Part shown: in pieces, positions 1 to 53,067 of the stretch
Numbering within the stretch: position 1 is the stretch's first letter
Layout of the letters: each line of letters starts with the position of its first letter
Assembly: GCA_045837725.1 (NCBI GenBank)
Contig: JBEWZL010000244.1
Span: 434,001 to 498,000 of the forward strand
Length of the DNA stretch: 64,000 bases
Direction of reading: 5' to 3'
DNA from: Vermamoeba vermiformis
Lineage: Eukaryota
Translations under genes and position numbers: made by a program
The notes under the pieces: model-generated
Database searches by the model: none
Told to the model about the DNA's origin: nothing
The model's input: only the letters and a program-made list of their open reading frames with translations

Positions 1-145
1 ATTTGCATTTGTAAGCGTGATTGTTGCCAAAATGTTTTCGAGCATCCATTGTAGTTATGCAGACGCAAGTGGTGAGCCGTCAAGTTTGATAGGAAGATGA
101 GACGTGTACTTCTCCAGATTTCGGATGTGGTTTTGTCGTTCTTTG

Positions 146-2609
146 TCAGACAGGTACAGTACATGTGGCTTCGCAAATTGCTTTGAGCCACCCAGGAATC
201 GGACATTTGAACAAATTGTCCGAAGCATTACACTGTTTCAGCAACGGTGGTACCTTATTGAACTTGGACGATACGGAAGTAAAATTGTTCTCGCTGATGT
301 CTAGAACCACTAAATTCTGAACGAATTCTTCTGGTAGGTCTAATTCGCCGCTGAAATAATTGACTTGAAGTGCAATGTATACATTTTCAGGACTCACGAG
401 TGCTTCGTTGAGTTTTGGAATTGTGCCGGAGAGCTGATTGCCGCCTATTTCTAATCGAACTACGTTCGTTTTTGCAAGGCTCGGTATTGTGCCAGTGAGA
501 TTATTGTAGCCCAGATGCAACCGCGTCAGATTCGTCAATTGTGAAATTTCGTTGGGCAATGTTCCTTGCAATCCACTCCGATAGATATTTAATTCTGTAA
601 GGTTCTTTAGGTTCCCAATCTGTGTCGGCATCGTCCACGACAGCTGTTGATTAAGACCAAGGTATAAAGTGTTCAATGACGGCAATGAAAATATCTCCAA
701 AGGCACAGATCCGTGGAGTAGTGTTCTTCTAAAGGAAAGCTTGGCGAGACTTGTAATATCTCCTATCGACTTTGGTATTGTTCCGTATAAGTGTTGCGAT
801 GCCAAGTATAATTTTCTGAGCTTGCTGAGTCTTCCAATTGAGTTGGGAATTGTTCCTATCATTTTATCGTTGTCCATAGCAATCTCGATCACTCTCAAAT
901 CACTGTCACAATAGACACCAGGCCACTTGCACACAGACACAAATGCCGATGCTCCATTCTGCCAATTTGGCCCGTCAGTATCGTAAAAGAACTCTTGCAG
1001 CACGTCTTGGTCCTTCGATGTCGCTGGAGCAGGTGCTAGCGGTGTTAATGCATCGGAATCTGGTCGTCGATTATCGCTACTTGGCGGTGTGTGAACGAAT
1101 GGCACGATGAAGAACACTCCAATAGCAACACTGATCAACAAGAGAACTGCGAGTGATGTGCCGATGATCCATCGAAGTGATCGATTCCTAGAATTGGGTA
1201 GTGCTGACTTTTGTATACTGTTCTGCTCTTTTTTGATAAATTCGGCGTACATCATATCGACAACTTGATGGATCTGACTAGTGTTCGCTTTCATGTCACT
1301 GATGTCTCTAAAGTTCTGTTTGATCGATTCGCTCAGGTAAGGAATCAATGACTCGTAGTCGACATGAAGAATGCCTAAATATACTCATTAGTATTGAGCT
1401 CAATAGTACTGTAAACACGTACCATCGATGAGTTGAACTGCTTCAGGCACGACACTCTCAATTTGCTGAGCGATGTATCCAACGAATCGTCTGTTTAGCA
1501 GTGCATTGGTGGCACCTTGTTTGAATTTGTACTCCACTCCATCAATTTTGAGAAGCACGGAGCGTGGGTCACGGTCGTCGATCAGCAGTCTTACATCTTC
1601 TTTGATGTTGATGTCTGATGCCTTGTAGAAGTTGAGTGCTCTGAAGTTGCCAATCACTTCTGCATTGCCGTTGTACAGCACGATATATTCATTGGAGTAA
1701 TCACTGTGTAATTGTTAATAAATGCCGAATTAGTGGAAGAGACGCGTACTTTTCAATATATTGTCTAAGTTCTGTCGTTGCATAACTCGCTTGCCTATAG
1801 TGCAACATAATTAAAACACGGTCTTAAGTAGTAAATCAGTGCCACTAGCTTACGAAATTGGTACGAGTGCAAGATCCTCCGAATCACCTTCATTGCTGTA
1901 ACTTTGCAATCTCTCTTCGGAGTCATTGAAGTCCGCCATAACACTATCTTCATCGCAATATTCTTCGGGAGAGGCGTAAACTGCGTCATTTTGAGGAAGT
2001 AGAACAGGTTTGTTTTGATCTCCTGCATCCAGCGGCCAACAAATTTGGATTATCGCTATAATTAAATAAAAATTAATATTTTCATTCATGCCCAATAGTT
2101 GAAAAATTAATTAAGGAATAAAAATTTGTTGTGATAATTAATTTCTATTTACCACTGTCCTCGGCCTCCTCGTCTGCAACACGCCTCTTAGGAAGTACTC
2201 TACACGTTTGAGAAAAGCCAGTATTTAAAAGAACGTCGTTTGAGAAACAACGGACCACAAATCTGATCGAGCGATCTTTGTTTCGTCTAAAATCGAACAC
2301 TCCGGCATTAATTTTCAATCTGCATAAAAGTCCTTCTATTATTGGGGTGTTTTGATTCGTTTGAAACTTAAAAGGTGTTCTTTTGGCCCAAACAAGGCCG
2401 TTTGTTATCAGATCTTCTGAAACTCCATTCGATTGAAGCATTTGAATTTGATAATGATAGCTCTCGTGCGTATCAGTTCTCGTCAGTGTCAATCCGAAGC
2501 TCGGAGACGTTATTTGAGTGAATACAAACGAATCTGCTCTACCAGCAACCGGAATCCGCAACCGGAAATTGGTCAATACGTGAAGTAGCGGGTCATTTGT
2601 TTCTTCCAT
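146..2609 (-). CDS. MYRF-like membrane-tethered transcription factor with S74 auto-cleavage domain and LRR ectodomain, copy 1 (~737 aa)
   Basis: Hand-spliced GT-AG exons 2609-2153, 2055-1854, 1794-1750, 1703-1423, 1374-146 give one continuous 2214-nt frame. Motifs: PKRR NLS; acidic linker; GNAEVIGNF..KASDINIKEDV, GYIAQQIESVVPEAV and LHVDYESLIPYL (S74/ICA); TM WIIGTSLAVLLLISVAIGVFFIVPF; CKWPGVYC LRR N-cap; GTIPxxIGxL repeats; Cys C-cap. Confidence 0.88.
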
Positions 2610-2802
2610 TTCGGTGTTATATCAATTTTGACCGCTTGTGAACCGAATCAAGCTGGTCTCATACCTGTCACACTCGTCACGAAGTTCGAACTCCGCAAAA
2701 TCCCAGTTTCTGTTTGTAAAAAACAAGAAAATAGGCGAAACGGCACATTTATAGACGGCTTTAAAGCTTGGAAGAATCATTTCCGTCGTTTCAATTTTTT
2801 TT

Positions 2803-5344
2803 TTATGTACAACTAGCGCTACACTCTGTTTTGAACCATTCAGGAATCGAACATTTGAACGGATTGCCTGTTGCATAGCAAAACATGTACGTTGCTGTCC
2901 TGTTGTCGAATCGAGGAGATACTGAACTGAAATTATTGTTGATGATATCAAAGTAATTCATAGTTTTGGGCGCTATCGGCAAGTCGAATTCGCCGCTAAA
3001 ACTATTATTCGCAATACTGACGGCCAGCTCCAATTTTTCGTTCTCGATAAAAAGTTGCTCGTTCAACTTGGGAATTGAGCCAGTAAAATTGTTGTTTTCC
3101 AATTTTAACCGACGCACGCTTGTTTTTGCAAGACTAGGCACTGTTCCAATTAAATTGTTACTGCCAACTGACAATCCTTCGAGTTTCGTCAATTTTGAAA
3201 TTTCGTCAGGCAATGTTCCGTGCAGGCCAGTAACATGCGCGTCAAAGATTTTGAGGTTTTTCAGGTTTCCAATTTGTGGCGGTATTGTCCACGACAAATT
3301 TGCATTATCGCTGATCTCTAGAGTCTGCAGCGAAACCAACGAGAATATCTCCAATGGCACTGTACCCGTGAGCTGACTGCGTATCAAATGCAGCTTGACG
3401 AGACTTGTTAGATTTCCAATAGAGGCTGGTATAGTTCCAGATATCTTGTTTTGATACGGCAACTGCAGAATTTGAAGCTTGTCCAGTTTGCCAATTGAGT
3501 CCGGGATCGTGCCAGCCAAATTCTGGTACTTGTCTAGCTGAATAGCTACCACTCTGAAGTCTTCGTCGCATTTGACGCAAAGCCAGTCACAAACTGATAT
3601 AGAAGGTGATGCAGTTACTCCCCAATACTTGCTGCCACCAGTAGCATAAAACAAGTCGACGAGCACTTCCTGATCGATTGACGGGAAAGCCGATGGTGTC
3701 GTTGATTGTAATGGACTCGGTACGCTAGGCAGTGGCGTGTTTGGTGCTTCAGGGAGGTTGTGAATATTCGGGGCAGGACGGACTAGTGGCACGATGAAGA
3801 ACGCTCCAATAGCAACACTGAGCAATAAGAGAACTGCGAGTGATGTGCCAATGATCCATCGTAGCGAATGATTACGTAGATGTTGTTTTGGATTGGACGT
3901 AGTTGACTTATTAATCTTCTTTTGCTCCTTTTTGATGAACTCAGCATAAAGCATATCAACAACTTGGTGAATCTGACTCGTGTTCGCTTTCATGTCACTG
4001 ATGTCTCTGAAGTTCTGTTTGATTGATTCACTCAGATATGGTATCAATGACTCGTAGTCCACGTGAAGAATGCCTAAATATACTCATTAGTATTGAGCTT
4101 GATAGTGCTGCATGCACTTACCATCGATGAGTTGAACTGCTTCAGGTACGACACTCTCAATTTGCTGAGCGATGTAACCGACGAATCTCTTGTTCAGTGG
4201 TGCATTGGTGGCACCTTGTTTGAACTTATATTCGACTCCATCGATTTTGAGAAGCACGGAGCGTGGATCGTGATCATCAATCAGCAGTCTGACATCTTCT
4301 TTGATGTTGATGTCTGATGCCTTGTAGAAGTTGAGTGCTCTGAAGTTGCCAATCACTTCTGCGTTGCCATTGTATAGCACCATGTAGTGTTCGGTATTGT
4401 GACTATTAAACGTTAGCAAAAGAAGATGGTACGACCAAGTGAGGCACGTACTTTGTGACGAACGCTTCGGGCTCTGCTAAAACGTAGCCGGAGTGCCTAT
4501 GGTGCATCATATTAAGAATGACGACGTCAATCATAGTGATAAAATATACAGCGATAAATAAATATACTTACGATACTGGGATCAGCGAAAGATCCTCGGA
4601 GTCACCTTCGTTGCTGAAACTTTGAAATCGTTCGTCCGAATCGTTATATGTTTCCATAACACTATCCTCATCTTGGTATTCTTGATACTCTTCAAGAGAT
4701 GAATATTGCTCGTTTTGTTGAACGACGCAATGCGGAGATTGATTTTCGGGTGAATCCAGGACCCAACAAATTGGAATTATTACTAATTAATAAAATGTAT
4801 AAATATTACAATCGCGTATTATCGAATCATATTTGTATTTAAATCTTGTACGAATATTTAAATTAATTTTGTTCGCTCACTTACGGTCACTGTCGTCAAC
4901 CTCCTCGTCCGCCACGCGTTTTTTAGGGTGCACATTGCATAACTGAGAAACTCCAGTGCTGAGTAGAACGTTATTGGAGAAACAACGAACTACAACTCTG
5001 ATCGATCTGTGTTTCACACGTCTGAAATCGAATATTCCTGTTGGGATTCGAAGTCTACATACTAGAGCTTCGATTATTGACGTGTTTTGCTTCTTTTGAA
5101 ACTGATATGGTGTTCTTTTGGCCCAATGAAGGCCGTTTAAAACAATTTCCTCCGATACTCCATTTGACTGGAGCATTTGAATTTGATAATGATAGCTCTC
5201 ATGCGTATCAGTTCTCGTCAATGTCAATCCGAAGCTCGGAGACGTTGTTTGAGTGAAAACAAATGCATCTACAGCTCCAGATAGAGGGATCAAGACTTGA
5301 AAATTGTTCAATACATTAATTTGTGTAGTGTTCGTCACCTCCAT
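2803..5344 (-). CDS. MYRF-like S74-TM-LRR protein, copy 2 (~755 aa)
   Basis: Exons 5344-4885, 4782-4572, 4496-4452, 4402-4122, 4073-2803 (2268 nt, in frame). Intron positions, phases and domain order are the same as in copy 1. Confidence 0.88.
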
Positions 5345-5485
5345 GCTTGATTTACGGTGGTCACGGCAAGGAAGTAAATTTAAAGTGCATGTGAACTGTC
5401 GAAAAATTTCGGAGTTATTGACGCTGCGCACGTGCGGCTGCTTATGTAATGTGATTTATTTGCAGTGATCGTTCATGAAATTGCT

Positions 5486-8008
5486 TTATTTACAAGAAGC
5501 ATGGCAAATTGTTTGAAGCCATTCAGGAATTGGACAGTTGAAGGGATTACCTTCCGCATGACAAACTGCGTGAACTTTAGTGACGTTAAAAAATTTTGGC
5601 GATACGGAAGTGAACAAATTTTCCGTGATATCCAGTAAGTCTATATCTTTCAAAAATTCTTGTGGCAAGTCGAATTCACCGCTGAAAGAGTTTTGCGCGA
5701 GAATAATGCTCGTGTAGGTTCCCTCAGGTAGCAGAACGTTCTCGTTAATCTTCGGAGCTGGGCCCGTCAAGAAATTGTATGACAATTGTAGCTGTCTAAT
5801 GTTTGTCTTTTCAAGACTAGGCACTGTGCCAGTCAGATTATTGCCGCCTAAGTACAATATCGTTAACGAAGACAGCTCTGAGATTTCGTTTGGTATCGTT
5901 CCATGAAGTCCAGCGACGTGTGCGTCGAACTCCTCAAGACGTTTGAGGTTTGAAATCTGTGGAGGTATCGTCCATGACAACCCACGGTTATTGTTCAGGC
6001 CCAAATTCTTCAATGAAGTCAACGAGAATATCTCCAACGGCACTGTTCCGCTAAGGTGCGTGTTGGACAAACTGAGTGTGACGAGGTTTGTAAGGTTTCC
6101 TATTGACACTGGAATAGTCCCGCTCAGCATGTTCGGCGACAATCGAAAACTTTCAAGCTTGTCTAGTTTGCCAATTGAATCGGGAATTGTTCCATCCAAA
6201 CTGCCAGCGACCTTCTCAATGCGAACTACTCTGAAGTCTTCGTTGCACGTGATACCAGGCCATTCACAAACTGAAATTGATGGCAGCGATGTGTTCTTCC
6301 ACTTCTTGCCTCCGCCAGTTGCGTAGTAGAACTCGAGAAGCACGTCTTGGTCGATTGACGGAAAATGACCAGGAACATTCGTACTCGGTGCTTCCGGCGT
6401 CGCTGAATGATTGGGACTCGATGGGTTATTGTTAACGAATGGCACGATGAAGAACACTCCAACGGCAATGCTGATCAACAAAACAACTGCGAGTGATGCG
6501 CCGATGATCCACCGAAGTGAGCGATTCCTGGTTCGTTCTTTCGTGCCAGCAGTTTTCTTTTCGTTTTTCTTCTGCTCTTTTTTGATGAACTCAGCATACA
6601 TCATATCAACGACTTGATGGATGTGACTCGCATCCGCTTTCATATCGCTGATGTCTCTGAAGTTCTGTTTGATTGATTCGCTCAGATATGGTATCAATGA
6701 TTCGTAGTCCACGTGAAGAATGCCTAAAGATACTCATTAGTATTGAGATTAATAGTGTGCATGTTCGTACCATCGATGAGTTGAACTGCTTCAGGAACAA
6801 CACTCTCAATTTGCTGAGCGATGTATCCGACGAATCTCTTGTTCAGTGGTGCGTTGGTGGCACCTTGTTTGAACTTATATTCGACTCCATCGATTTTGAG
6901 AAGCACGGAGCGCGGGTCACGATCGTCGATCAATAGCCTGACATCTTCTTTGATGTTGATGTCTGATGCCTTGTAGAAGTTGAGTGCTCTGAAGTTGCCG
7001 ATCACTTCTGCATTGCCATTGTAGAGTATCATGTAGTTGTCCGAGTGATAACTGCGTCTATGTTAGAAAACGACATCACGATAAAGTGAGCTACGTACTT
7101 CGTGGCACCCGACTGGAGTTCTGCGACATCACCGTAGCTTACGTGCCTGCCCGTAAATCATCGTTAGACTAACATCCGTGTGATGCTTTTAAAGCGTACG
7201 CCGCTATATTAAAACACTTACGAAACGGGGATCAGCGAAAGATCTTCAGATTCAGCGTCGTTGCTGTAACTTTGAAATCGTTCTTCTGAATCGTTAAGTG
7301 TGGTGGCCATTACACTATCTTCATCTTGGTATTCTTCAGGAGATGAATAAAGTGCCTCATGTTGCAAATGAACGCTTGCCGCATATTGAGCTTCTGCATC
7401 CAACGCCCAACAAATTGGAATAATAACTAAAAAAAGCCATTATACACGTAGTACTTGATACTAAAACGATTTTTGTTGCGAGGAATCATAAATGGTTTGA
7501 AAAATTGCAATTGGTAATAAAATTAATTAGCCGATTTTTACTTACCGTTGCCTTCGTCGGGTTCTTCGTCCGCAACACGCCTTTTAGGAAATACTTTGCA
7601 TGTTTGAGAAAGTCCTGTGCTTAAGAGAACGTCGTCTTTCGCAAAACAACGAACCACAATTCTGATCGAGCGATCTTTGTTTCTTCTGAAATCAAATACT
7701 CCTGTTGTGATCTTCAATCGACATATTAGTGCTTCTATTATTGAAGTATTGTATTTTTTCTGAAACTGATATGGTGTTCTCTTCGCCCACGCAAGGCCGT
7801 TTGAAACAACTTCTTCTTGCCCGTTCGTTGCTGTTTGAAGTATTTGGAATTGATAATGATAGCTATCATTTGTATCAATACGCGTCAGAGTCAATCCGAA
7901 GCTTGGATTGGTAGTCTGGGTGAAAACAAACGCATCCGCATCTCCTGAAATCGGAATAAAAATCTGAAAATTAGTTAAAACGTGCAGCTGAATTGCATTT
8001 GGTTCCAT
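5486..8008 (-). CDS. MYRF-like S74-TM-LRR protein, copy 3 (~744 aa)
   Basis: Exons 8008-7546, 7426-7222, 7146-7099, 7051-6771, 6723-5486 (2235 nt, in frame). Same architecture. Confidence 0.88.
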
Positions 8009-8124
8009 TGTGGTTAAGTACGCTGTTCATTTGAGGAACATTGAAATTAAATGGGTGTGATTCTATAAATCCCGTGTGATCTGATTGCCTGTCAAGTTAC
8101 TTAAAAAGATTACGATTTCGTTTT

Positions 8125-10702
8125 TTATGTACAAGTCGCTTGACACTCTATTTTCAACCATTCCGGAATTGGACACTTGAACGGATTGCCTGCCGCGAAA
8201 CATTTTGCTATTGTCGTTACATTATCGAGCCGCGGAGACACGGAAGTAAACTTATTATTTGCCAGGCCAATATAATTCTTATCGTTGAATATCTCTAATG
8301 GTAGGTCAACTTCACCGCTGAAAAAATTGTCATCCAAGTCCACACTAAACGGTTGGTGTTCTGCAGGTTCATTCAACTTTGGAATTGGACCCGTGAAGTG
8401 ATTCCTTGTCAAGCTTAGGTAGTTGAGGTTCAAGTTGGCAAGACTAGGCACTGTTCCGGTTATATTGTTGGAGCCCAACGACAACCAACCGAGATTTGTT
8501 AGTTGCGAAATTTCGTTGGGCAATGTTCCGTGCAGTCCAGAGAGACGCGCATTGAATCTTTTGAGTTGCTTCAAGTTTGAAATCTGCGGCGGTATCGTCC
8601 ATGACATGTTATAGTTGCTAATGACGTCAAATATCTTCAATGAAGTCAGAGAGAATATCTCCAATGGCACTGAACCGGTGAATTCTGACAGTCCGAGATC
8701 GAGTTCGACGAGGCTTGTAAGATTTCCAATCGATACTGGAATGGTCCCAGACAGCTTATTTGCACGAAGGCGAAGAGTTGTAAGCTTGTTGAGTTTGCCA
8801 ATGGAGTCGGGTATCGTTCCAACTAGATCTCCTTGCACGAATTGAATAGAAACCACTCTGAAGTCCGCGTCGCATTTTACACCAGGCCATTCACAAACTG
8901 AGGTTGAAGGCGAGGCCTTGTACTTCGTGTTCCAGTCTTTGCCACGGGTAGCGTAATAGAACTCGACAAGCACGTATTGATCTATTGACGGAAACACTTG
9001 TACGGGTGGCTCACTTGGTGGTGGATTTGGTGGGTTTATACTTGGCGATTCGATTGTTGCCGGTGTATTTGGGGTGTTAGGACTTGGTGACTCGTTAGAA
9101 CTTGCAGCTGGGTGTACTAGCGGTACGATGAACAATACTCCAATGGCAATACTGGCAAGTACCAAAGCTGTGATCGATGCGCTAATAATCCATCGAAGTG
9201 AGCGATTCCTAGGGCGTTCTTTCGTGCCAGCAGTTTTCTGTTCGTTTTTCTTTTGCTCTTTTTTGATGAACTCAGCGTACATCATATCAACGACTTGATG
9301 GATCTGATTCGCATCTGCTTTCATGTCACTGATGTCTCTGAAGTTCTGTTTGATTGACTCACTCAGATATGGTATCAATGACTCGTAGTCCACGTGAAGA
9401 ATGCCTGAGAAGCATGTTAGAAGAGAAATAAGCCGCATTACACTCCGTACCAATCGATGAGTTGAACTGCTTCAGGCACGACACTTTCAATCTGTTGAGC
9501 GATGTATCCGACGAATCTCTTGTTCAGTGGTGCGTTGGTGGCACCTTGTTTGAATTTGTATTCGACTCCATCGATTTTGAGAAGCACGGAGCGTGGGTCA
9601 CGATCATCAATCAATAGCCTCACATCTTCTTTGATGTTGATGTCTGATGCCTTGTAGAAGTTGAGTGCTCTGAAGTTGCCAATCACTTCTGCATTGCCGT
9701 TGTAGAGTACCATGTATCGATCGGATTGATCACTGTGAAAGTTTAGCGAATGAGATAAGAAGATTTCTCGAGACACATACTTGACGACCTGTTGCTCTGG
9801 TTCTGTAAGGATAAAGCTCGCTTCACTATCATATTTCGTAGTTAGAGTGGCGGCTTGTGCAATATGATATGGGTAACATAAGTGAAGTCGATATACTTAC
9901 GAAGTAGGCACGAGTGAAAGTTCGTCCGGGTCAGCTTCGTTGCTGAAACTTTGCAATCGTTCTTCAGAGTCGTTGAAGTTTGCCATGACACTGTCTTCAT
10001 CGGGATATTGTTCAGGTGACGAGAAAAATTGCTCAGGCGCTGCGTCAAACTGGTAATTAGGTTCTGCTGACCGATTCTGATCCTGATGCGCATCCAGCAA
10101 CCAGCAAATTGGAATAGTTACTGTTTGAAAAATAGTTAAAAATAGAAGCCGAATTATTTAATGTTAAAACATGTGCGCAGTAATTGAAAGCCATCCTGTA
10201 GCGACAAATAAATTTAATTTATGATCCGTTTAAAACCTTACCATTGTTTTCGGATTCCTCGTCGGCGAGTCTTTTTTTAGGAAGGACTTTGCATGTTTGA
10301 GAAAGTCCTGTACTTAATAAAACGTCGTTTGAAAAACACCGAACAATAAATCTGATCGACTGCGCGCTCTTTGTTCCGTCGAAAATCAAATATTCCTGAA
10401 GTTATCTTCACTGTACATATCAATGCTTCTATCAGTGAGGTATTTGCTCGCTTTTGAAAGTGGTATGGTGTTCTTTTGGCCCACGCGAGACCATTTGAAA
10501 TTATTTCTTCTGATCCACCAGTTGATTGAATCATTTGGATTTGATAATGGAAGCTTTCGCGAGTATCTACTCGAGTCAAAGTCAATCCGAAGCTTGGATC
10601 TGTTGTTTGAGTGAATACAAACGCATCCGCATCTCCGGAAATCGGAATTAACACATGAAAATTGTTCAATACATGAATATGAGTGTCGTAAGTAGCTTCC
10701 AT
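8125..10702 (-). pseudogene. MYRF-like S74-TM-LRR protein, copy 4, with two frameshifts (pseudogene or assembly errors)
   Basis: Exons 10702-10242, 10120-9901, 9825-9781, 9732-9451, 9404-8125. Relative to the paralogs there is a 4-nt insertion (gcag on minus, ~10360-10363) in exon 1 and one extra T (9452/9453) just before the exon-4 donor. The LRR exon is intact. Confidence 0.72.
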
Positions 10703-11071
10703 GATTGGTTTATGGTATGCGCGATAAGGTCATTGAATTAATGTTCATGTGAGCTGGAAGCAAAGTTCATGAAACAAAATTTGCCGAGATAAATTCTTCC
10801 ATTTTAGGACGACTGGTCTTGTGGATATCTCCCTTGATGATCAGCGTATTCCTGGACAACATCGGGAGCCTTTCTTGATTTCCGATTCGTTGTCGCCTCG
10901 TGCCATGTCAGATTTGCTCCTAGTGAGCAGGAGCATGATTTGTGCCTGGTTTATGCATGCAACAAGTCTTTTTCGATAACGTTGCGGGTTTGGCGGCCGG
11001 ACAACAAAATTCGAGTTCGCCTAAGTTGTCAGATTTAATTTTGATCTTTTATTGCATAGAGCAACACGACA

Positions 11072-14879: not shown

Positions 14880-17026
14880 ATGGAAATAAAAGAGGGAGAC
14901 AATTTGTTCGACGCTCTGCCGATTGAGATCTTGGAAACAATTTTTGTTTTCTGCGGGATCGATGCCAAAAATGTCGCCAAAATTAGAAAAATAATTATTT
15001 AAATCCATCAAAGTATTGGCCGTGCTTAAAAGCGAGCAGACGGACTGATAATTAGGATCCGTTACGAATTCTGACTGTCTGATTCTGACCAAAAAATCAG
15101 AATTCTGACCGCAAAATAATTTGTCAGGATTTGTCACGTCAGAATTTTATTGCGGATTGAAGAATTACTGATTCTGACCACGCAAAATAATTTTACTGTA
15201 CAGTACCGTTTGTGAGCTATATATATGGTATATATGATTGAAAATGATATAAACAAACAAATTGCTTCGTTCGCGAGGCTGATCTAAGCGTACTGTGCGT
15301 ATAAATTAGCTGTTGATCGGAGCCAATCCTGCCCCGCTCACAATTTATATTTATGCAGAAGATAACATTTCCTAAGTGTTGTTGCATATATAGTGACCAT
15401 TAACGGTCTCAGAATTTATGATAGAGTGCTAAAGTTTAATACCGGATGTGCACTTTATTCGTGCAACGATGAAAGGCTACGCACCCGATTGTAACTGTGG
15501 GTAAAGTAGCTCTATGACATATATAGAAAATTCATTGCTGAATGAGCAAAAATAAGGCTTGCTGATAGCCGATATTCAAAAAAATTCTAAAATTTTTTCG
15601 TTCTGACCGCAAAAGCTGAAAAAATTCGTCAGAATCAGAAAACGTAATACTTTTCGAATTTTTTCTTGGGTTAACCAGAAGTCAGACAGTCAGAAAATCA
15701 GACAGTCAGAAAACGTAACGGATCCGATAATTAAACATAGTCTCCGTAAATTATTCCCACAACAAGCGAAAAATTAATTAAAATCCATTTTTATTAGGCT
15801 CGAGCAAGTATCTAAGAAGTGCAAGCAATATTGTTGGCGCTGTCAACCTTCTCTCGACTTGCATCCGTATCATTCAGTTGTCACCCAGCACGTGCTTAGA
15901 AAGCTGCTGAAATTGACCAATTATGGAAAATTGAAGTATTTATCGTTAAATACATGCGTTTATATCGATGGAGACCAATTTCCGCCTTTGGAAAACTTGT
16001 CGACTTTAGAACACTTGGATCTTGGCAACTGCGATACCCTCGATGATAAAGTCTTCGTGAATAGTTGGAATATGCCTAATTTATTATCGCTAAATCTGCG
16101 AAATACCGGTGTCTCAAGCATAGGTACGGATCAAATCCAAAAAAAAATTGGAACGAAAACTAATTTTATTCTGTTAGGACTTATGGGCCTTAGAAAATTA
16201 ACTCGCTTAACATCGCTCGATGTATATCATTGCTACAATGTTTCAACCCTGAAGCTGGTCTCGTCCTTGACTAACATCAAGTCTCTTGACTGCGGGTTTT
16301 GCGACTCGATGCGCGTGATGAGTGGCATTCGAGACATTACCAGTCTGCAAAAGTTAGAAGTACTCAACTGCCAGTTCTACTTTTTCGATAATGGTAAGTT
16401 ATAGGATATTTACACCAGTATATTATTTGTTCCAAACAAGTCCTCTCGCATCCAAAAAAATTTTCTCCCGTACAATTCCAATTACTCTATTCGAATTTTA
16501 TGATAGATAATAGTATAAGGAATTTATTGATGTCTTAATTTTTGGTTTTGTTGCTGACTTTGTTTTTTTAGCATTTGGTCTGCTGACAATGTTCCAACAT
16601 TTGACCAGTCTCGATGTGTCGCAGTCAAGTATGGTCACTAAACGAGGTGCCGCACTGTTAGCGAAATTAACTGGCTTAAAGTCGCTTAATATCAGCTGGT
16701 GTGATAAACTGGACGATGAAGGAATGAAGTCCCTGACGACATTAGTGAACTTGGAAGAGTTGAATATAGCCTATTGCAGACTTTTAACCGACGAATCAAT
16801 GGCTGTCGTGGGAAATTTCACAAAATTAACGCGATTGGACATCAGCGGAATAACTCACTTGACCGACGACGGAGCGAAGCATTTGCACGCGTTGAAGGGT
16901 TTGCGCGAGTTCAATATTGACATGTGTCATAATATAACCCCTGCAGGAGTCGTTGATTATAGAAAAGTAATGCTACGACAATCTGCAAACTTAAAAATAT
17001 CAACGGACTCGATCGATGTAGATTAG
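14880..17026 (+). CDS. F-box/LRR (AMN1/FBXL-type) protein
   Basis: Exon at 14880 encodes MEIKEGDNLFDALPIEILETIFVFC (F-box). It continues at 15798 with LEQVSKKCKQYCW, then Cys-containing LRRs (LTSLDVSQS, LKSLNISWCDKLDDEG, LEELNIAYCRLLTDES). The first intron contains a MITE and lacks a clean phase-2 GT donor. Confidence 0.7.
15055..15725. mobile_element. Non-autonomous TIR DNA transposon (MITE), 671 bp
   Basis: Left end GGATCCGTTACGAATTCTGACTGTCTGATT and right end AATCAGACAGTCAGAAAACGTAACGGATCC form an imperfect ~30-bp inverted repeat. Exact 8-bp direct repeat GATAATTA at 15047-15054 and 15726-15733. Multiple subterminal TTCTGAC/GTCAGAA motifs. No transposase ORF. Confidence 0.9.
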
Positions 17027-23396: not shown

Positions 23397-26249
23397 TCAT
23401 GCTGTAGCGTTCTTTTCGAGCATCGCACAAATAGCACCCATTTCCTAGAATTAACGGCGTTAGTTACAGACAATAATAATGATTATTCAAGTACTCACCG
23501 GTCGTTCATTTGGATCCATCTTCCAACACATCAGCATCACTTCACGAAGTACTTTAGGACAGCTCTCAGGTATTGTTGGCGTGTACCCCTCATCGCGAAT
23601 CTTAATCGCAACATCGATCACCTCCTCGGTCTCGTGAGGCTCTTTACGCGCAACAATCTCGTACAAAAGCATGCCAAACGACCACACGTCAGATTTCGTG
23701 CTGTACAACCGTTTGCCGAGTGCTTCAGGCGCCATCCATCTTAACGGACCAATATTTGTAGCGGTTTTTCCAACTTCTGACAATTCTTTCAATTTTCGTG
23801 ACATGCCAAAGTCAGATATTTTTGGTTCACCGTGATGCAACAAAATATTACGCACGGCAAGGTCACGATGAACGATATTATTTTGATGCAAATGATCGAT
23901 GCCCCTAGCTATCGCTTCAGCAAGTGCAATTTGTTCCGCAGGAGTGCTCAATTTGTCGGTCTCAAATAGGACATTGTCGAGACTGCCTTCGTTGCAGTAC
24001 TCCAGCACCACTAACGGCAAAGGACCATCAATCGATACGCCCAATAATTGCACAATGTTCGGATGTGGTGGGATGGCCGCTTGAAAATTGGCTTCGCGAA
24101 TGAATTCTTCTTGCGGAATTGTTGAATTGGCCACTTTGATAGCTACTTTTGTCGTTCTTAATTTGCCAAGGTATACTACAAAAGAGATTAAAATTATACC
24201 TAAATTTGGTAAAAAATACCTCTGCCAAATGATCCGACTCCAATTTCTTTGTCTAGAGTGACAGAGGCATAAGGAATCAGTCTATTGTCGACACTCATTG
24301 CCGCAGCATCATTCGGTGCAGTACCAGTTGTTGATGGCTCTGTGCCAACGAGACTAATGTGAGAATAAGTGCCGTTATTTGAATTGGCACCGCTGACAGG
24401 CTGCATAACATCGTAAGGAGAGTTGGTTTCAGGCGTCAACGGCACCGATGTCGTTGCGGCCTCTTTTTTCTTTGCCTTTCGTTTCTTCTTTTTCTTCAAA
24501 AGTAACAAAAGAAGTACCAACAGCCCTACACCAACAACAACGCCTGGCACAGCGACGCCAATTGCAATCTTAGCCGATTGCGTCAATGCAGAGGGTAGTG
24601 CCGCGACATTTTCATCCCCTGGCACAAATGTTGGTGCATCCGTGGCAGGTCCGTCAACTGGCGGAACCGAGTCTTCAGGCGAATTGACTGGAATACTAAC
24701 AGGTGAATCAATAGGAGTGCTAATCGGAGGTATAATGTCATTGGTATAATTGCCGTTTTGATCCACGAATTTGCTGCCGCCGACCCAAGTCCAAATGGTC
24801 GTACTAAACGAATACTTCCACAAATCATTCAACAGACCAACATTTCCATTAGTATCAAACCCATCACCCCCAAACAACCATAATATTCCGTCACCATCGA
24901 GCCACATTGCTGGATACCGTCTGGATCCAGGGTAATTCGATTGATCTCCCGTACCAGGACTATTAGGATAAACACCTGCTTCATTCGTAGTTGTAGGTCC
25001 TTTTAATAGAATCCAAGTTGTTCCGTCCCACTCAAGCAGATCCGCTAAAAACCCTCCTGTAACAAAAGTGTCAGGCAATTTCATGAACCGTCAACTGCCG
25101 TAGGATTATACCTGAGTCTGAAAATCCGCCAAAAATCCACGCCTTGCCTACAGTACTAACCGAACCCGAAGCAGAACGTTTGGTCAAGGCACCAGTCGCA
25201 CTCAACATGGTCCATTGACTCGGCACTGTTTCCTCGAATTTGAATACTTGATTAGTTGTGCCTTGGAACGATTGACCGACGGCAAAATAGAACGCGTTGT
25301 TGCTGTCGATCCATCCTGCTATACGAGAGCCGCAGACTGGATACTCCGTAGTAGAAGGTGTGTCTGCAGAGCTCAATGTACCGGCACAATTATTCGTATC
25401 TTCACCACTCACGAAATTCCAAGCATTATTTGACCGGTCGTAATACCATAAATCGTTCAAATAGCCTATATAGAATTAAATTAAATTAAATTTTTAAAAA
25501 TATTAAGGTAGATCCGCATCTCCTCTAAAGGAGGTCAAAAAACGTACCTGTAAAGCTAGAATCAGATCCATAGCCACCATTTACATAGGTCGTGGCTCCA
25601 AACGAGACGCATTTGTGAGTGACCCGGGCTCCGATCTCGTACAGTGGTCCGTACGAACCTCTTAGCGAACCACTGCGCATGTTGGCCCATTGACTAATAT
25701 CAGGGTCGTACTTCCAAACAGCACTTGAAAGGACTGATAAATAGTCCATTATTATTACAGCTGGATTCGAAGCGACGGTTAAGAAAAATTTTATGTTACC
25801 TGAACTCAGTTGCTCGCCTCCAAAAAGCCACAATTTGTTGGAATCATCGGTCCATGCGCACATATTGGCCAGTCCACCGGGATTGAAAACTGGATCGAAC
25901 GTTCCTGGATCGCCTCCTAAACCGATCAAGTCCTTGATTTTATTTCCTCCCTCAAAGTTCCATATATTCGTTAATGGATTGTAACTCCACATATCGCTCA
26001 ATAAGCCGGCTGTATTCGAATTTTGAATTAATAATTATTAATTTTAATTAATTTGAAGGTCTGCACAACTAACTTACCCAACGGTGAACTTTCATCCCAG
26101 CCTTGACCTCCAAATACCCATAATTTACTATCGTATAACCACGATGCAGCGCTGTATCTTCCTCCTGGATACGCTGCGTACAGAAAATTAGGTGATAATA
26201 TTGTTATAATTAAGCCCAATAACAATACGGGCCGTTTATAACAACTCAT
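23397..26249 (-). CDS. Receptor tyrosine kinase-like protein with kelch-type beta-propeller ectodomain
   Basis: Signal peptide; repeats PGxRxxxxxW..LWLFGG..LNDLWKY; Pro-rich stalk; TM followed by KKKKKRKAKKK; kinase motifs GVGSFG, VAIK, HRDLAVRN, DFG, GPLRWMAPE, SDVWSFG. Confidence 0.88.
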
Positions 26250-26599: not shown

Positions 26600-28409
26600 A
26601 TGGAGGCGTGCCCACAAGAAATTAAAAAATTTATTTGCACCTTTCTGGACTATAATACTCGCCTCAAAATGCGACTACTTAGTACTCATTGGCTCAAAGT
26701 AATTGATTTAACTCATTTCAAATTTTATTTCACGCGGGATGCAGATGTACCCAAGATCGTCGAGCTTTTATCGCTCCACCGATCACCTTTCTCTATCTCA
26801 TTCCCAAAATCTAATATATGGGAATATGTCGATTTTTGTGGGCAGATAGCGAAGCTTACAGCATTAACTGGCTTGGAACTTCCAGATTTCAGCACTCTGC
26901 CGCCTGGACTGACACTGCGAGCTAAAATGACGGGTCTATCGGCGTTAACCAACTTAAAAAGCTTGACGAGAGATTTCAGTAACAATATTTTTTGGCCAAA
27001 CAAATGCGATTATTTTGAACCGAGCCAGATGTACCAAAATTTTAAACACTTGACGTACTTGGAAGTTCTGCCTGTTATCATAGACCGACGAAAGGGATGC
27101 ACACGCGAAGATATGAAAAATATAGCACCTATAATTGAGCAGAATCCAAATCTACAAGGAGCTGTGTTATATTTGGCCGATAAGACTTTAACGATCGACC
27201 AAAACTTTGCGGATTTGTTTGTGGAGCACAAAAACTTGAGGAAGTTGGTTATTGTATCTAACTTCACCAAGCATATTCAATGCAATCTATTCAACAATCT
27301 TGGCGGCTTGAAATCTTTATCCTTTGAAGACCTTGCAGATGGAGAACGAGGAGTGGAAGTAGCCTTATTTGCACAACTTACAAATTTAGAAGAGTTGACG
27401 TACCTCTCAGCGGTGCCTTTAATCAATATCGATCAATTGATCAACTTAACGTCGCTTAGATTGGCCAACAAGTCTTTATTTGGATCCGAGTGGCAAAAAG
27501 TTTTTCAGTCGGTCTCAGAATTGACAAAATTGAAAAGAATTGATTTGCATTTGCACGAGCACGACAGTACGGATTATCAATTTTTAGCAGCTTTGCAGTC
27601 AATTAGAAACTGTCTCGGTCAAACGAGGTCCAAACCAAGGAGATCAGATTCAGATCTTGGAACATCTTTCTTCGCCGAAATTGACGAAGCTAGTGGTTAA
27701 TATGGAATCAAATACGAGCTTAAGCGATATTGAACGACTTAATAGCACGTTGTTAGAGCTCGAACTGCATAATAATTGTAATCGAGTTCCCCTCAGCAGC
27801 ACCAATCGCGCAGCTTTGGCAGCCGCAACAAACATTACGAAGTTAATCTTTCTTGGTAGGACTGTCGAAGAAGACGTCCGCGCTATAGAACAAATGTCAA
27901 ACTTGAAAGATCTTACGTTCTACGAGGACAATTGGGGCCCGAAGATGAGCTTGAAAAATTTAACTAACCTTGAAAACATTGCCTCCAAGACCGACGCTGA
28001 CATTAATGAGATTGCCCTCTGCAAAAACTTAACAGCACTCAAATGTCGCTTTGACGTAGAGAGTGACACCAACACGGATGTCCTTGCTCCATTGCCGTTG
28101 AAAACGATTTTCATGCACGAACCATTGCCGTACAACCATTGGTTCCAAACGATCGGAAAAATCCAGTCGCTTGAAAGTTTGGTGCTTATTGGTGTTATTG
28201 ACGAAAATATGAAGACTTGGGATGGCTTAACGAACCTCACTCGCTTAGTGTACTTCGATGGATTTGTCCAAGGCGAGCATCTGTCCAAGTTGACAGCATT
28301 GCAAAGAATTTCAACGAACAGAACTGTGCCAGAGTTGGCAAAAAAATTGCCTCACGTTTACGAGTACACTAGCAATGTTCAATACTTCAGATCCTTGGTA
28401 CGCGAGTAG
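26600..28409 (+). CDS. F-box/LRR protein, intronless, with one apparent +1 frameshift near 27596
   Basis: MEACPQEIKKFICTFLD..LKMRLLSTHW (F-box), then LxxLxxL repeats. The two overlapping ORFs join as FLAAL-SQLETVSV if one base is removed. Confidence 0.7.
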
Positions 28410-50505: not shown

Positions 50506-53067
50506 ATGGAAGCTCAAATAGACCCTCAGATTCATGTATTAAATAACTTTCAAATATTTATTCCTCTTTCAGGAGATGCGGATACGTTTGTTTTCACTCA
50601 AACAACATCTCCGAGCTTCGGATTGACTTTAACACGGACCGATACTCGAGAGAGTTATCATTATCAAATCCAAATGTTGCCCTCTAATGATCTTTCTGAT
50701 GAACCGCTTTCAAATGGTCTCTCATGGGCAAAAAGAACGCCATATCAGTTTCAAAAGAAGCAAAACACGTCAATAATTGAAGCACTTGTATGTAGATTGA
50801 AGATTACCACGGGAGTTTTTGATTTTAGAAGAGTAAAACAACGCTCGATCAGATTTGTGGTCCGCTGTTTTGCGAGTGACACCTTGTTGAGCACTGGCGT
50901 CTCGCAGCAATGCAGAATATTTCCTAAAAAGCGACTTGCAGAGGAGGATAATGATGACAACGTGAATGGTAAGTTTGTATTAATTATATTCCGATTATGA
51001 GGAGACAAAAATACAATTTACTCGATTATTATCATAACCAAGTTTATTTGCAATTAATTCAATTGTTAGCCATCGTTCCGATAACTTGGATGCTGGGCTC
51101 ATCTGTTGAATCTACTTCACACTTACAGCAAGCCGAAGCACAATACTATTCATCTCCAGAACAATACCACGATGAAGACAGCGTTATGGCGAATTTTAAT
51201 GAATCCGAGGACAGGCTACAAAGTTACAGCAATGAAGGTGACTCGGAGGATCTTTCACTGGTACCAATATCGTAAGCAAACTCATTTTACACATATAATA
51301 TGATGCATCTAGTATTAACTACCAGTCTAATCGTGATATGCACTAGAGATGTGCCTTACATATTGATGGAGCCCGAACAATCCAGCGAAAAGTACGCTTC
51401 TCGCATTCATAAAATTACCACGGAGTTATAATTAATGTACACTAGCCAATCGGACCACTACATGGTGCTGTACAACGGCAACGCAGAAGTGATTGGCAAC
51501 TTCAGAGCACTCAACTTCTACAAGGCATCAGACATCAACATCAAAGAAGATGTCAGACTGCTGATCGACGACCGTGACCCACGCTCAGTTCTTCTCAAAA
51601 TCGATGGAGTGGAGTACAAGTTCAAACAAGGTGCCACCAACGCACCAATGAACAAGAGATTCGTCGGATACATCGCTCAGCAAATTGAGAGTGTTGTTCC
51701 TGAAGCAGTTCAACTCATCGATGGTACGCACAGTCATACACCTTACATTTGTTTATGTTCTAACATGCTTCTCAGGCATTCTCCATGTGGACTACGAGTC
51801 ATTGATACCATATCTGAGTGAGTCAATCAAACAGAACTTCAGAGACATCAGTGACATGAAAGCGGATGCGAGTCAGATCCACAAAATAGTTGATATGATG
51901 TACGCTGAGTTCATCAAGAAAGACCAAAAGAAGCACGAGAAATCGCCGAAGGCACGAGAGACAGTAACGAGACGCACAAAAATGATGCGATGGATCATTG
52001 GGACATCACTAACGGTCCTCGCATTGATCAGTGTTGCAATTGCTGTCGCCTTCATCGTGCCATTAACACATTCGACGCCAGAGTCAGGGACCAACCATCC
52101 GTCGGCTCCATCCCAAGAACCACTGTCTCCATCAAATCCTGAACAAGCAATCCCAGATCCACCGCCACTCGAGTCGTTAGATCAAGACGTAATATTGGAG
52201 TTGTATAACGCAACTGCTGGCGTGAAATGGCAAGGAAAAGTGTCGCTATCGCAGCCAGTGTGTGAGTGGCTGGGAATTACGTGCGACACAAACTTGCGAG
52301 TGGTCAAGCTCGAACTACTTGACATGAACTTGCAAGGTACATTGCCCGAGTCTATTGGCAAACTCGACCAGCTCCAGTATTTGCGGCTTTCATCGAGCTT
52401 TCTAACTGGAACAATTCCCGCGGCGATTGGAAATCTCTCGAATCTTGAAGCACTTGATCTGGCCTTCAACCAGTTCACTGGCACTGTGCCATTGGAGATA
52501 TTCTCTTTGCCTTCATTGAAGACTTTGACGCTCAACTACGCCTATGGATTGTCTTGGACAATACCACCGCAGATTTCAAACCTCAAATATCTCGAAAGCT
52601 TTTCAGCGCGCGCTTCTGGACTCCATGGAACATTGCCCAACGAAATTTCGCAGTTAAAGAACTTGAAAGTGTTGGGGCTTGGACAAAATCAACTCACAGG
52701 AACTATACCGAATCTGGCCCAAACAAACATCACGCAGCTGAGTCTGCTCAGAAATCAATTCACAGGTCCCGTCCCCAAAGTCAATCCCTTTGATAATGGC
52801 TTGCCGTTGGAAACCAAGTCTGTGGTCTTTGACATTTCAAGTAACTCTTTCACCGGTGAATTTCATTTGCCTTCGCAGTGGCTAGGCTCTCAGGCCGTGG
52901 ATGTGTTTGTCTCCATCGTGAACAACGATTTCACCTCATTGTCTCCCGAGCTACAAGAACGAAATATGACCTCGAATTGGGAGAGCTGTCGCGCCGGAGG
53001 AGTGCCATTTAGATGTCCAATTCCGGACTGGTTCCGCACGAGTTGTAGAGCCAAGTGTGTAAATTGA
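50506..53067 (+). CDS. MYRF-like S74-TM-LRR protein, copy 5 (~759 aa), dispersed
   Basis: Exons 50506-50968, 51070-51271, 51347-51391, 51446-51723, 51776-53067 (2280 nt, in frame). Same intron phases and domain order as copies 1-4. Confidence 0.9.

Follow-up and report, generated by a model that had tools for sequence, protein, structure and literature searches.

Membrane-bound transcription factors of the MYRF and MrfA type (PMC3742443, PMC3742440 and PMC5473870, in the parts available of each) are the closest described counterparts of the genes treated here. As the available part of PMC3742443 describes it, MYRF is a type-II membrane protein whose intramolecular chaperone auto-processing (ICA) domain makes it trimerise and cut itself, freeing an N-terminal DNA-binding trimer to the nucleus, and a Ser/Lys pair provides the catalytic residues of the domain. 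The gating of MYRF cleavage is an open question, in which a separate leucine-rich repeat (LRR) protein takes part in C. elegans; according to the accessible sections of PMC8099431, this LRR transmembrane protein, PAN-1, binds to MYRF and promotes its entry into the nucleus, and excerpts of PMC12803276 likewise present PAN-1 as acting with MYRF. The LRR proteins of plants are a further point of comparison, with a variability that is concentrated at the xxLxLxx positions of the repeat in the portions available of PMC3113787 and PMC4115169. In a 64-kb stretch of the Vermamoeba vermiformis genome (contig JBEWZL010000244.1, 64,000 nucleotides, referred to below as the window), one gene in five copies carries an LRR ectodomain and a predicted ICA domain in a single polypeptide.

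The family consists of tandem eukaryotic genes for single-pass type-II membrane proteins. The order of their parts is a cytosolic N-terminal beta-sandwich, an acidic linker, a Peptidase_S74 (ICA) domain, a conserved helix, a transmembrane helix, a Pro/Ser stalk and a capped ectodomain of nine plant-type LRRs. MYRF is likewise a type-II protein with a cytosolic beta-sandwich, a Peptidase_S74 domain with the Ser/Lys pair, a transmembrane helix and a non-cytosolic C-terminal domain, and in both a basic PKKR motif follows the N-terminal domain. Unlike MYRF, the family here has no Pfam match to Ndt80/PhoG, its fold matches the MYRF DNA-binding domain with a Z score of only 5.1, and it has expanded in tandem. 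The C-terminal domains of MYRF are named MRF_C1 and MRF_C2. They were not found in the four last exons scanned (Pfam, E up to 0.01), where LRR families were the sole matches; the C-terminal part is therefore a plant-type LRR domain and not the C-terminal region of MYRF. Since this region is missing and no Ndt80 profile match was obtained, the genes appear to stand outside the MYRF family, and the protein seems built to work like MYRF without being a member of it. The worm pair resembles the family in linking the function of an LRR ectodomain protein to that of a membrane transcription factor that is cleaved through its ICA domain; the difference is that the worm uses two proteins in trans, whereas here the LRR and ICA modules share one chain.

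The five paralogs differ mainly at LRR positions 2, 3, 5, 7, 8 and 10, that is, on the concave beta-sheet face; inside any one paralog lineage, the concave sites show the same degree of conservation as other parts of the ectodomain. Each paralog thus appears to have a recognition surface of its own that is now maintained, having diverged, probably adaptively, once the genes had duplicated. This history seems to be one neither of drift free of constraint nor of an allelic arms race that still goes on. Concave-face variability of LRR paralogs is a familiar pattern, and the fusion of ICA and LRR domains is a new combination: no description of it, or of DG1062, was found in the literature searched, supplements excluded.

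Gene Copies and Architecture

Searches with tblastn, using the products of the open reading frames (ORFs), locate five copies (Table 1). Four of them, on the minus strand at 146-10702, form a head-to-tail array at the left end of the window, where the unit recurs about every 2.65-2.70 kb; the fifth is on the plus strand and spans 50506-53067. Base composition is even, at about 41% G+C. An earlier note on this DNA had put five copies within 146-9000; the number is right, but only four lie in or near that span, the fourth reaching 9453, and the fifth is 42 kb away on the plus strand, with its last exon at 51652-53067.

The exons of copy c2 are separated by introns of 102, 75, 49 and 48 nt, which start with GTAAGT or GTACGT and end in TAG, and there are no internal stops. 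The resulting 755-aa model aligns end to end with P0162, a complete ORF of 751 aa from a Vermamoeba vermiformis transcriptome in EukProt, at 44.6% identity over 785 columns, and so has transcript support in a relative. The JGI model P0106 also aligns with c2.

Exon 1 encodes a domain of 153 aa, exon 2 is acidic and exon 4 encodes Peptidase_S74. The last exon begins with a near-invariant helix (LIPYLSESIKQNFRDISDMK...) and continues with the transmembrane helix, a Pro/Ser stalk, an LRRNT cap with CxWxGxxC, nine LRRs and a four-Cys cap. Between 6 and 11 Lys or Arg residues fall in the 25 residues before the transmembrane helix and 0-2 in those after it, and the C-terminal part has 4-6 N-x-S/T sequons along with 6-7 Cys. 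This asymmetry, together with the sequons and the cysteines, points to an N-terminus in the cytosol and an LRR domain outside the cell or in a lumen.

All four last exons scanned matched Pfam LRR families above their cut-offs, LRR_14 with 44.9-51.9 bits (cut-off 40) and LRR_1, LRR_4 and LRR_8 as well. The periodicity of the ectodomain, LxxLxLxxNxLxGxIPxxIGxL, is that of the plant 24-residue class. An AlphaFold model of copy c3 has a mean pLDDT of 82, mostly above 90 in the LRR region, with positions 3-5 modelled as beta strand in 9/9 repeats. Among solved structures, the best sequence matches of the ectodomain are GSO1 (E = 4e-113), FLS2, RGFR, HAESA, PEPR1 and MIK2; the closest folds to the model include plant PGIP (TMt 0.77), FLS2, PEPR1 and MIK2 (Foldseek, E about 1e-13) and a plant ice-binding LRR protein. 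With PGIP and the plant LRR receptors FLS2, PEPR1, MIK2 and GSO1 the family shares the 24-residue repeat, the CxWxGxxC N-cap, the fold and the variability at xxLxLxx. It differs from them in having no kinase, in its type-II topology with a C-terminal LRR domain, an inverted orientation to the membrane anchor, and in its ICA-based output module.

Two observations concern the gene structure itself. In relatives L001 and L003 the Peptidase_S74 and LRR parts lie in one open frame, and the intron between exon 4 and the last exon of the window's genes is absent. In exon 1 of copy c4 (10219-10729, minus strand), two frames are offset by one base directly after FDFRRNKE; a contig from metagenome run X6 is 4 nt shorter at 10354, a difference that would bring the frames into register again. 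Copy c4 may thus be a pseudogene in this strain, or the shift may be an assembly error.

The Predicted Self-Cleaving Module and the N-Terminal Domain

Both ICA exons scanned match PF13884, with 38.9 bits (E = 1e-9) and 37.4 bits against a cut-off of 22, and at the level of sequence this Pfam match is solid evidence for a predicted ICA domain. All five copies have S-D-I-N-I-K, a Ser with a Lys five residues on, which phmmer aligned to ADLRAK of the MYRF ICA structure 7dc3 and to SDRRIK of the phage T5 fibre 6f45, with weak E values of 0.06 and 0.11. The exon is almost invariant in protein, its proportion of nonsynonymous differences (pN) being 0.005-0.018 over the six pairs among c1, c2, c4 and c5. 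Its proportion of synonymous differences (pS) in these copies (1391-1711, 4122-4402, 9453-9746 and 51441-51725) is 0.23-0.36, against 0.60-0.72 in the LRR region, and the flanking introns are about 50% identical. Such a low pS in the ICA exon points to gene conversion over short tracts or to selection acting on the exon at the nucleotide level.

Relatives of the exon-1 domain are rare (39 in 1.84 billion representatives, mostly exon-sized ORFs). The domain has an invariant FDFR and a conserved LLPKKR motif, and its predicted fold is a confident all-beta sandwich with a pLDDT of 92. No Pfam family matched it, and Ndt80/PhoG was absent at E up to 10 for two exon-1 proteins and at 0.01 for another; a Foldseek search of the PDB with the model returned nothing at E <=0.001. 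An exhaustive structural aligner placed the DNA-binding domain of EBF1 first (Z 8.4 over 125 residues, root-mean-square deviation 3.5), where Z of 7-8 is a common best score. Among the 50 entries, further folds included velvet (5.8 and 5.7), CP2c (5.7), RBPJ (5.6), CEP-1 and p53 (5.4 and 5.1) and Ndt80 (5.2). In an Atlas search the clusters of DG1062_N (PF28397, Pfam 38.1) were nearest, at 0.88 and 0.87, and clusters of the LAG1, p53 and SPT23/MGA2 DNA-binding domains also appeared, all below the 0.9 level. Going by these modelled folds, we lean slightly towards a domain that would bind DNA.

Variability on the Concave Face

The classes of sites were preset from the LRR consensus and not from variability. 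Concave x sites are positions 2, 3, 5, 7 and 8 (43 columns), other x sites are positions 10, 12, 14, 17, 18, 21, 23 and 24 (56 columns), and the scaffold has 81 columns. The solvent exposure of the concave positions is as expected from the known geometry of LRR proteins.

Mean pairwise amino-acid identity over the ten pairs of the five copies is 0.19 at concave x, 0.59 at other x and 0.79 in the scaffold; the same comparison gives 0.29 for the stalk and 0.91 for the cytosolic helix. By position, identity at 2, 3, 5, 7, 8 and 10 is 0.30, 0.22, 0.14, 0.19, 0.11 and 0.30, and it is at least 0.50 at each of the 18 others. Entropy over 26 members of the family runs in the same order, with 2.69, 1.69 and 0.71 bits for concave x, other x and scaffold. 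The pattern of variable xxLxLxx positions in a near-constant scaffold that the earlier note had described is thus borne out in numbers. The strings it quoted are all present in the sequence: the second repeat reads RKLYLASQH, QILQLPYQNK, ESFRLSPNM, TTLRLRANK and QYLRLSSSF, the third KLSFRRTL, KLHLIRSQ, TLSLSNTH, ELDLGLSE and ALDLAFNQ, and the constant segments GTIPxSIGxL, G(T/S)VPLEIFSL, SWT(I/M)PxQI, GLxGTxPxEIS and FxCxIPxW occur in 5/5 copies.

Lamprey variable lymphocyte receptors (VLRs) also use the concave LRR face as a variable recognition surface, and make their diversity somatically from cassettes. The likeness that the note had drawn to them goes no further than this surface; the window holds five complete germline genes, and tblastn found no partial LRR cassettes or fragments in the 64 kb.

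Selection among Paralogs

Nei-Gojobori pN/pS is 0.81 at concave x, 0.41 at other x, 0.22 in the scaffold and 0.71 in the stalk. In the five copies pS is 0.72, 0.60 and 0.65 for concave x, other x and scaffold; because it is alike in the three classes, the excess lies in replacements, with no sign of targeted mutation. A fixed-sites codon model (GY-type rates, one tree in synonymous units, a shared kappa and one omega, or dN/dS, per class) gives an omega of 1.08 for concave x, with a profile interval of about 0.8-1.45 and values of 1.07-1.08 over the four best topologies, of 0.26 for other x and of 0.11 for the scaffold. With class-specific codon frequencies the three values are 0.82, 0.31 and 0.14. 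An equal omega for concave and other x is rejected (twice the log-likelihood difference, 2dlnL = 99, p = 3e-23), and the exposed positions do evolve faster than the rest of the ectodomain, as the note had proposed. Under M1a, 31/42 concave codons fall in the omega = 1 class with a posterior above 0.9, against 44/239 of the others (Fisher p = 3e-12). Across the old paralog tree, concave sites have evolved at about the neutral rate.

The pattern could also arise by homogenisation, if gene conversion kept the scaffold alike and the patches that escape conversion appeared hypervariable. The halved synonymous divergence of the ICA exon relative to the LRR region agrees with this, and so does a mosaic in two relatives. 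P0009 and P0014 are alike in 149 of 150 aligned residues from the cytosolic helix through LRRNT and then 40-65% identical per 40-column window in the LRRs, where P0010 and P0014 are 68-92% identical per window; the mosaic of these three implies recombination at the start of the LRR domain. However, variable and constant positions alternate codon by codon in each 24-residue repeat, which conversion tracts cannot produce, scaffold and concave codons have the same pS across the LRR region, and the introns are only about 50% identical. We regard homogenisation as very improbable.

Conservation within Lineages and Divergence of Young Paralogs

Close variants were compared in four pairs of a window copy and a database sequence at 97-99% identity (P0006-c1, P0007-c5, P0001-c4 and P0003-c2) and in ten clusters of variants at least 90% identical, drawn from ten further members of the family. 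The pairs differ at 1/172 concave, 7/224 other x, 5/324 scaffold, 4/88 stalk and 7/164 LRRNT positions. In the clusters, 12/421 concave, 25/550 other x, 12/796 scaffold and 12/223 stalk columns are polymorphic. Pooled, the close variants change at 13/593 concave, 32/774 other x and 16/311 stalk positions, so that the concave rate is about half that of the stalk. At the rate ratios of the paralogs, the pairs should have 7-9 concave changes out of 13, and under a binomial the chance of seeing at most one is 2e-5 to 5e-4; the clusters should have 27-33 out of 49 but show 12, with a probability of 2e-9 to 1e-5.

Young paralogs present the opposite picture. The relatives P0010 and P0014 differ at 16/43 concave, 5/56 other x and 3/22 stalk columns, and P0016 and P0019 at 28/43, 15/56 and 3/22. 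Setting paralog divergence against the polymorphism of close variants in a McDonald-Kreitman-like (MK-like) table, the concave to stalk counts are 44:6 against 13:16, an odds ratio of 9 (p = 6.5e-5); with other x as the reference the odds ratio is 5.4 (p = 4.6e-5).

Weighing the Reading of Maintained Surfaces

Taken as a whole, with its architecture, concave divergence, maintained surfaces and MYRF-like mechanism, the reading set out at the beginning seems to us fairly probable. Because of the conservation within lineages and the concave excess in the MK-like contrast, recognition of something different by each paralog is still the best inference. The earlier note had argued for a different ligand for each paralog on one shared signalling module. 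The module is near-invariant, as the pN of the Peptidase_S74 exon and the identity of the helix show, and different recognition is favoured, though not by way of a dN/dS above 1.

Several points weigh against this reading. The ligand, the cleavage, the trimer and the nuclear fragment are all putative here, by analogy with MYRF, and the DNA-binding assignment is drawn from models with middling fold scores (EBF1 Z 8.4, Ndt80 5.2, MYRF 5.1), Atlas values below 0.9 and no Pfam match. With pS of 0.60-0.72 near saturation, omega is imprecise, and in the fixed-sites model a concave omega of 1 stands unrejected (p = 0.58). Random-sites models, run on 281 gap-free ectodomain codons of the five copies and of low power with saturated dS, yield no significant gain for M2a over M1a (2dlnL = 0.66, p = 0.72) or for M8 over M8a (p = 0.14). 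The M7 against M8 comparison that the note had suggested is significant (2dlnL = 16.2, p = 3e-4), but the class it adds has an omega of only 1.18, with 30% of sites. An excess of replacements over the neutral rate at the exposed positions, the note's central expectation, is accordingly not borne out at either 1.08 or 0.82. The comparisons within lineages and the MK-like contrasts are made on protein alone, with the stalk and other site classes standing in for synonymous sites as reference; their counts are small, most of the close-variant data come from relatives and not from the window, and both young pairs were chosen post hoc as the closest pairs. Metagenome runs X5-X8, searched against 1-10800, gave short, low-depth contigs that are 0-10% diverged. 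They show 13 differences between strains in the last exon of c3 (among 40 of about 320), of which two are in concave codons, one E>D and one synonymous, too few to decide the matter.

These codon-model results suit the view that there is relaxed constraint only, in which concave positions are functionless, the scaffold alone is selected and the exposed sites have drifted neutrally to saturation. A concave omega indistinguishable from 1 is what this view expects, the random-sites models offer it the same comfort, and the disordered stalk is nearly as diverged as the concave face (identity 0.29, pN/pS 0.71). Neutral sites should, however, be the fastest to change among close variants, and the concave sites change less there than both the stalk and other x, with a shortfall from the paralog rate ratios at p of 2e-9 to 5e-4. 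Relaxed constraint, which the note had named as the outcome that would undo its proposal, is contradicted by this conservation and by the concave excess in young paralogs, and we hold it to be improbable.

A second alternative is an ongoing diversifying arms race like that of plant R genes, RLPs and PGIPs, with alleles and recent copies still changing at the concave face and an omega above 1. The variable positions coincide with those of these plant families, the nearest folds among solved structures belong to PGIP and to plant receptors for immunity and for peptides, the genes stand in a tandem array, and young paralog pairs differ chiefly at concave sites. Against this, omega is nowhere shown to exceed 1, the four 97-99% pairs hold a single concave difference in 172, and in the ten clusters polymorphism is lower at concave than at other x sites. 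The close variants lack the hypervariability of plant receptors, and the allelic hypervariability of the plant R-gene kind that the note had implied for concave sites was not found (13/593 concave against 32/774 other x). A continuing arms race is unlikely in our judgement, if a shade less so than relaxed constraint. The preferred reading, in which the surfaces diverged after duplication and have since been maintained, accommodates both the young paralogs and the close variants.

Putative Mechanism and Significance

By analogy with MYRF, the ectodomain of each paralog would bind a ligand specific to it, either extracellular or lumenal, the ICA domain would trimerise and cut at the Ser of SDINIK, and the N-terminal domain, with the acidic region and the PKKR motif, would be released to the nucleus. 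More speculatively, and as a possibility we put forward with some doubt, the genes might encode one-component receptor-transcription factors of amoebae, in which a ligand at the concave face controls ICA trimerisation and self-cleavage and sends an EBF/p53-like fragment to the nucleus. The paralogs would then form a germline repertoire of receptors for pattern recognition or for the recognition of prey or kin, with direct transcriptional output, and a cis-fused counterpart of nematode PAN-1/MYRF.

The unusual part of the system is the joining of an LRR domain to a phage-derived self-cleaving domain and a beta-sandwich domain in MYRF-like order. A natural fusion of a sensor to a cleavable factor, in several paralogs with different surfaces, would open the gating question to direct experiment. 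How free-living amoebae recognise microbes is little understood, and the fusion would also suggest that they have a repertoire of receptors.

Coordinates and Related Loci

Table 1. Positions of the five gene copies and their parts in the window.
Feature	Position	Strand	Details	Basis
Copy c1, whole gene	146..2609	-	last-exon ORF 146-1348; Peptidase_S74 exon ~1391-1711; exon 1 2148-2609	ORFs, tblastn, Pfam LRR families
Copy c2, whole gene	2803..5344	-	exons 5344-4885, 4782-4572, 4496-4452, 4402-4122, 4073-2803; 755 aa	splice sites read from the sequence, script check
Copy c3, whole gene	5486..8008	-	last exon 5486-6712; Peptidase_S74 exon ~6760-7053; exon 1 7541-8008	ORFs, Pfam, tblastn
Copy c4, whole gene	8125..10702	-	last exon 8125-9453; Peptidase_S74 exon ~9453-9746; exon 1 10237-10702, frameshifted over two frames	ORFs, Pfam, tblastn
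Copy c5, whole gene	50506..53067	+	exon 1 from 50506; Peptidase_S74 exon ~51441-51725; last exon 51652-53067	tblastn
c1 LRR repeats R1-R9	272..895	-	carry the variable concave positions	
c2 LRR repeats R1-R9	2920..3555	-		
c3 LRR repeats R1-R9	5603..6232	-	copy modelled	
c4 LRR repeats R1-R9	8239..8859	-		
c5 LRR repeats R1-R9	52297..52941	+		
Transmembrane helix	c3 6431..6520; c1 1088-1180, c2 3775-3867, c4 9109-9201, c5 51982-52074	- (c3)	c3: predicted helix residues 65-93	
c2 Peptidase_S74 (ICA) exon	4122..4402	-	S-D-I-N-I-K motif	Pfam PF13884
c2 exon 1	4885..5344	-	153-aa all-beta N-terminal domain; invariant FDFR(R/K), PKKR motif	

Related loci were found in two genome contigs (L001 and L002) and three metagenome contigs, and none among viral contigs. 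Distinct loci are 34-52% identical at the protein level, the overlap of L004 and L005 being identical, and the nearest DNA elsewhere is in water, aquifer and soil metagenomes. The genome assembly behind L001 has three matches to the family. L001 and L002 are small contigs of the cyanobacterial assembly of Brasilonema sp. CT11 that encode this eukaryotic family, and are probably amoeba contamination of that assembly. Some metagenome contigs run from one copy of the window into another (for example from 3299 to 6012, or from 8534 back to 3250) across a stretch of unrelated sequence; related strains may have other paralogs or a different arrangement, or the joints may be artefacts of assembly.

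Outside the tandem family, unrelated LRR ORFs lie at 15778-17026 and 26600-28409 on the plus strand, with LRR_4, LRR_14, RPS2-like and Zer-1-like profile matches. An ORF with a kinase domain of the Tyr/Ser-Thr type (PF07714, E = 5e-58) at 23487-25084 on the minus strand adjoins a Kelch-repeat ORF, and the two may be exons of one gene.

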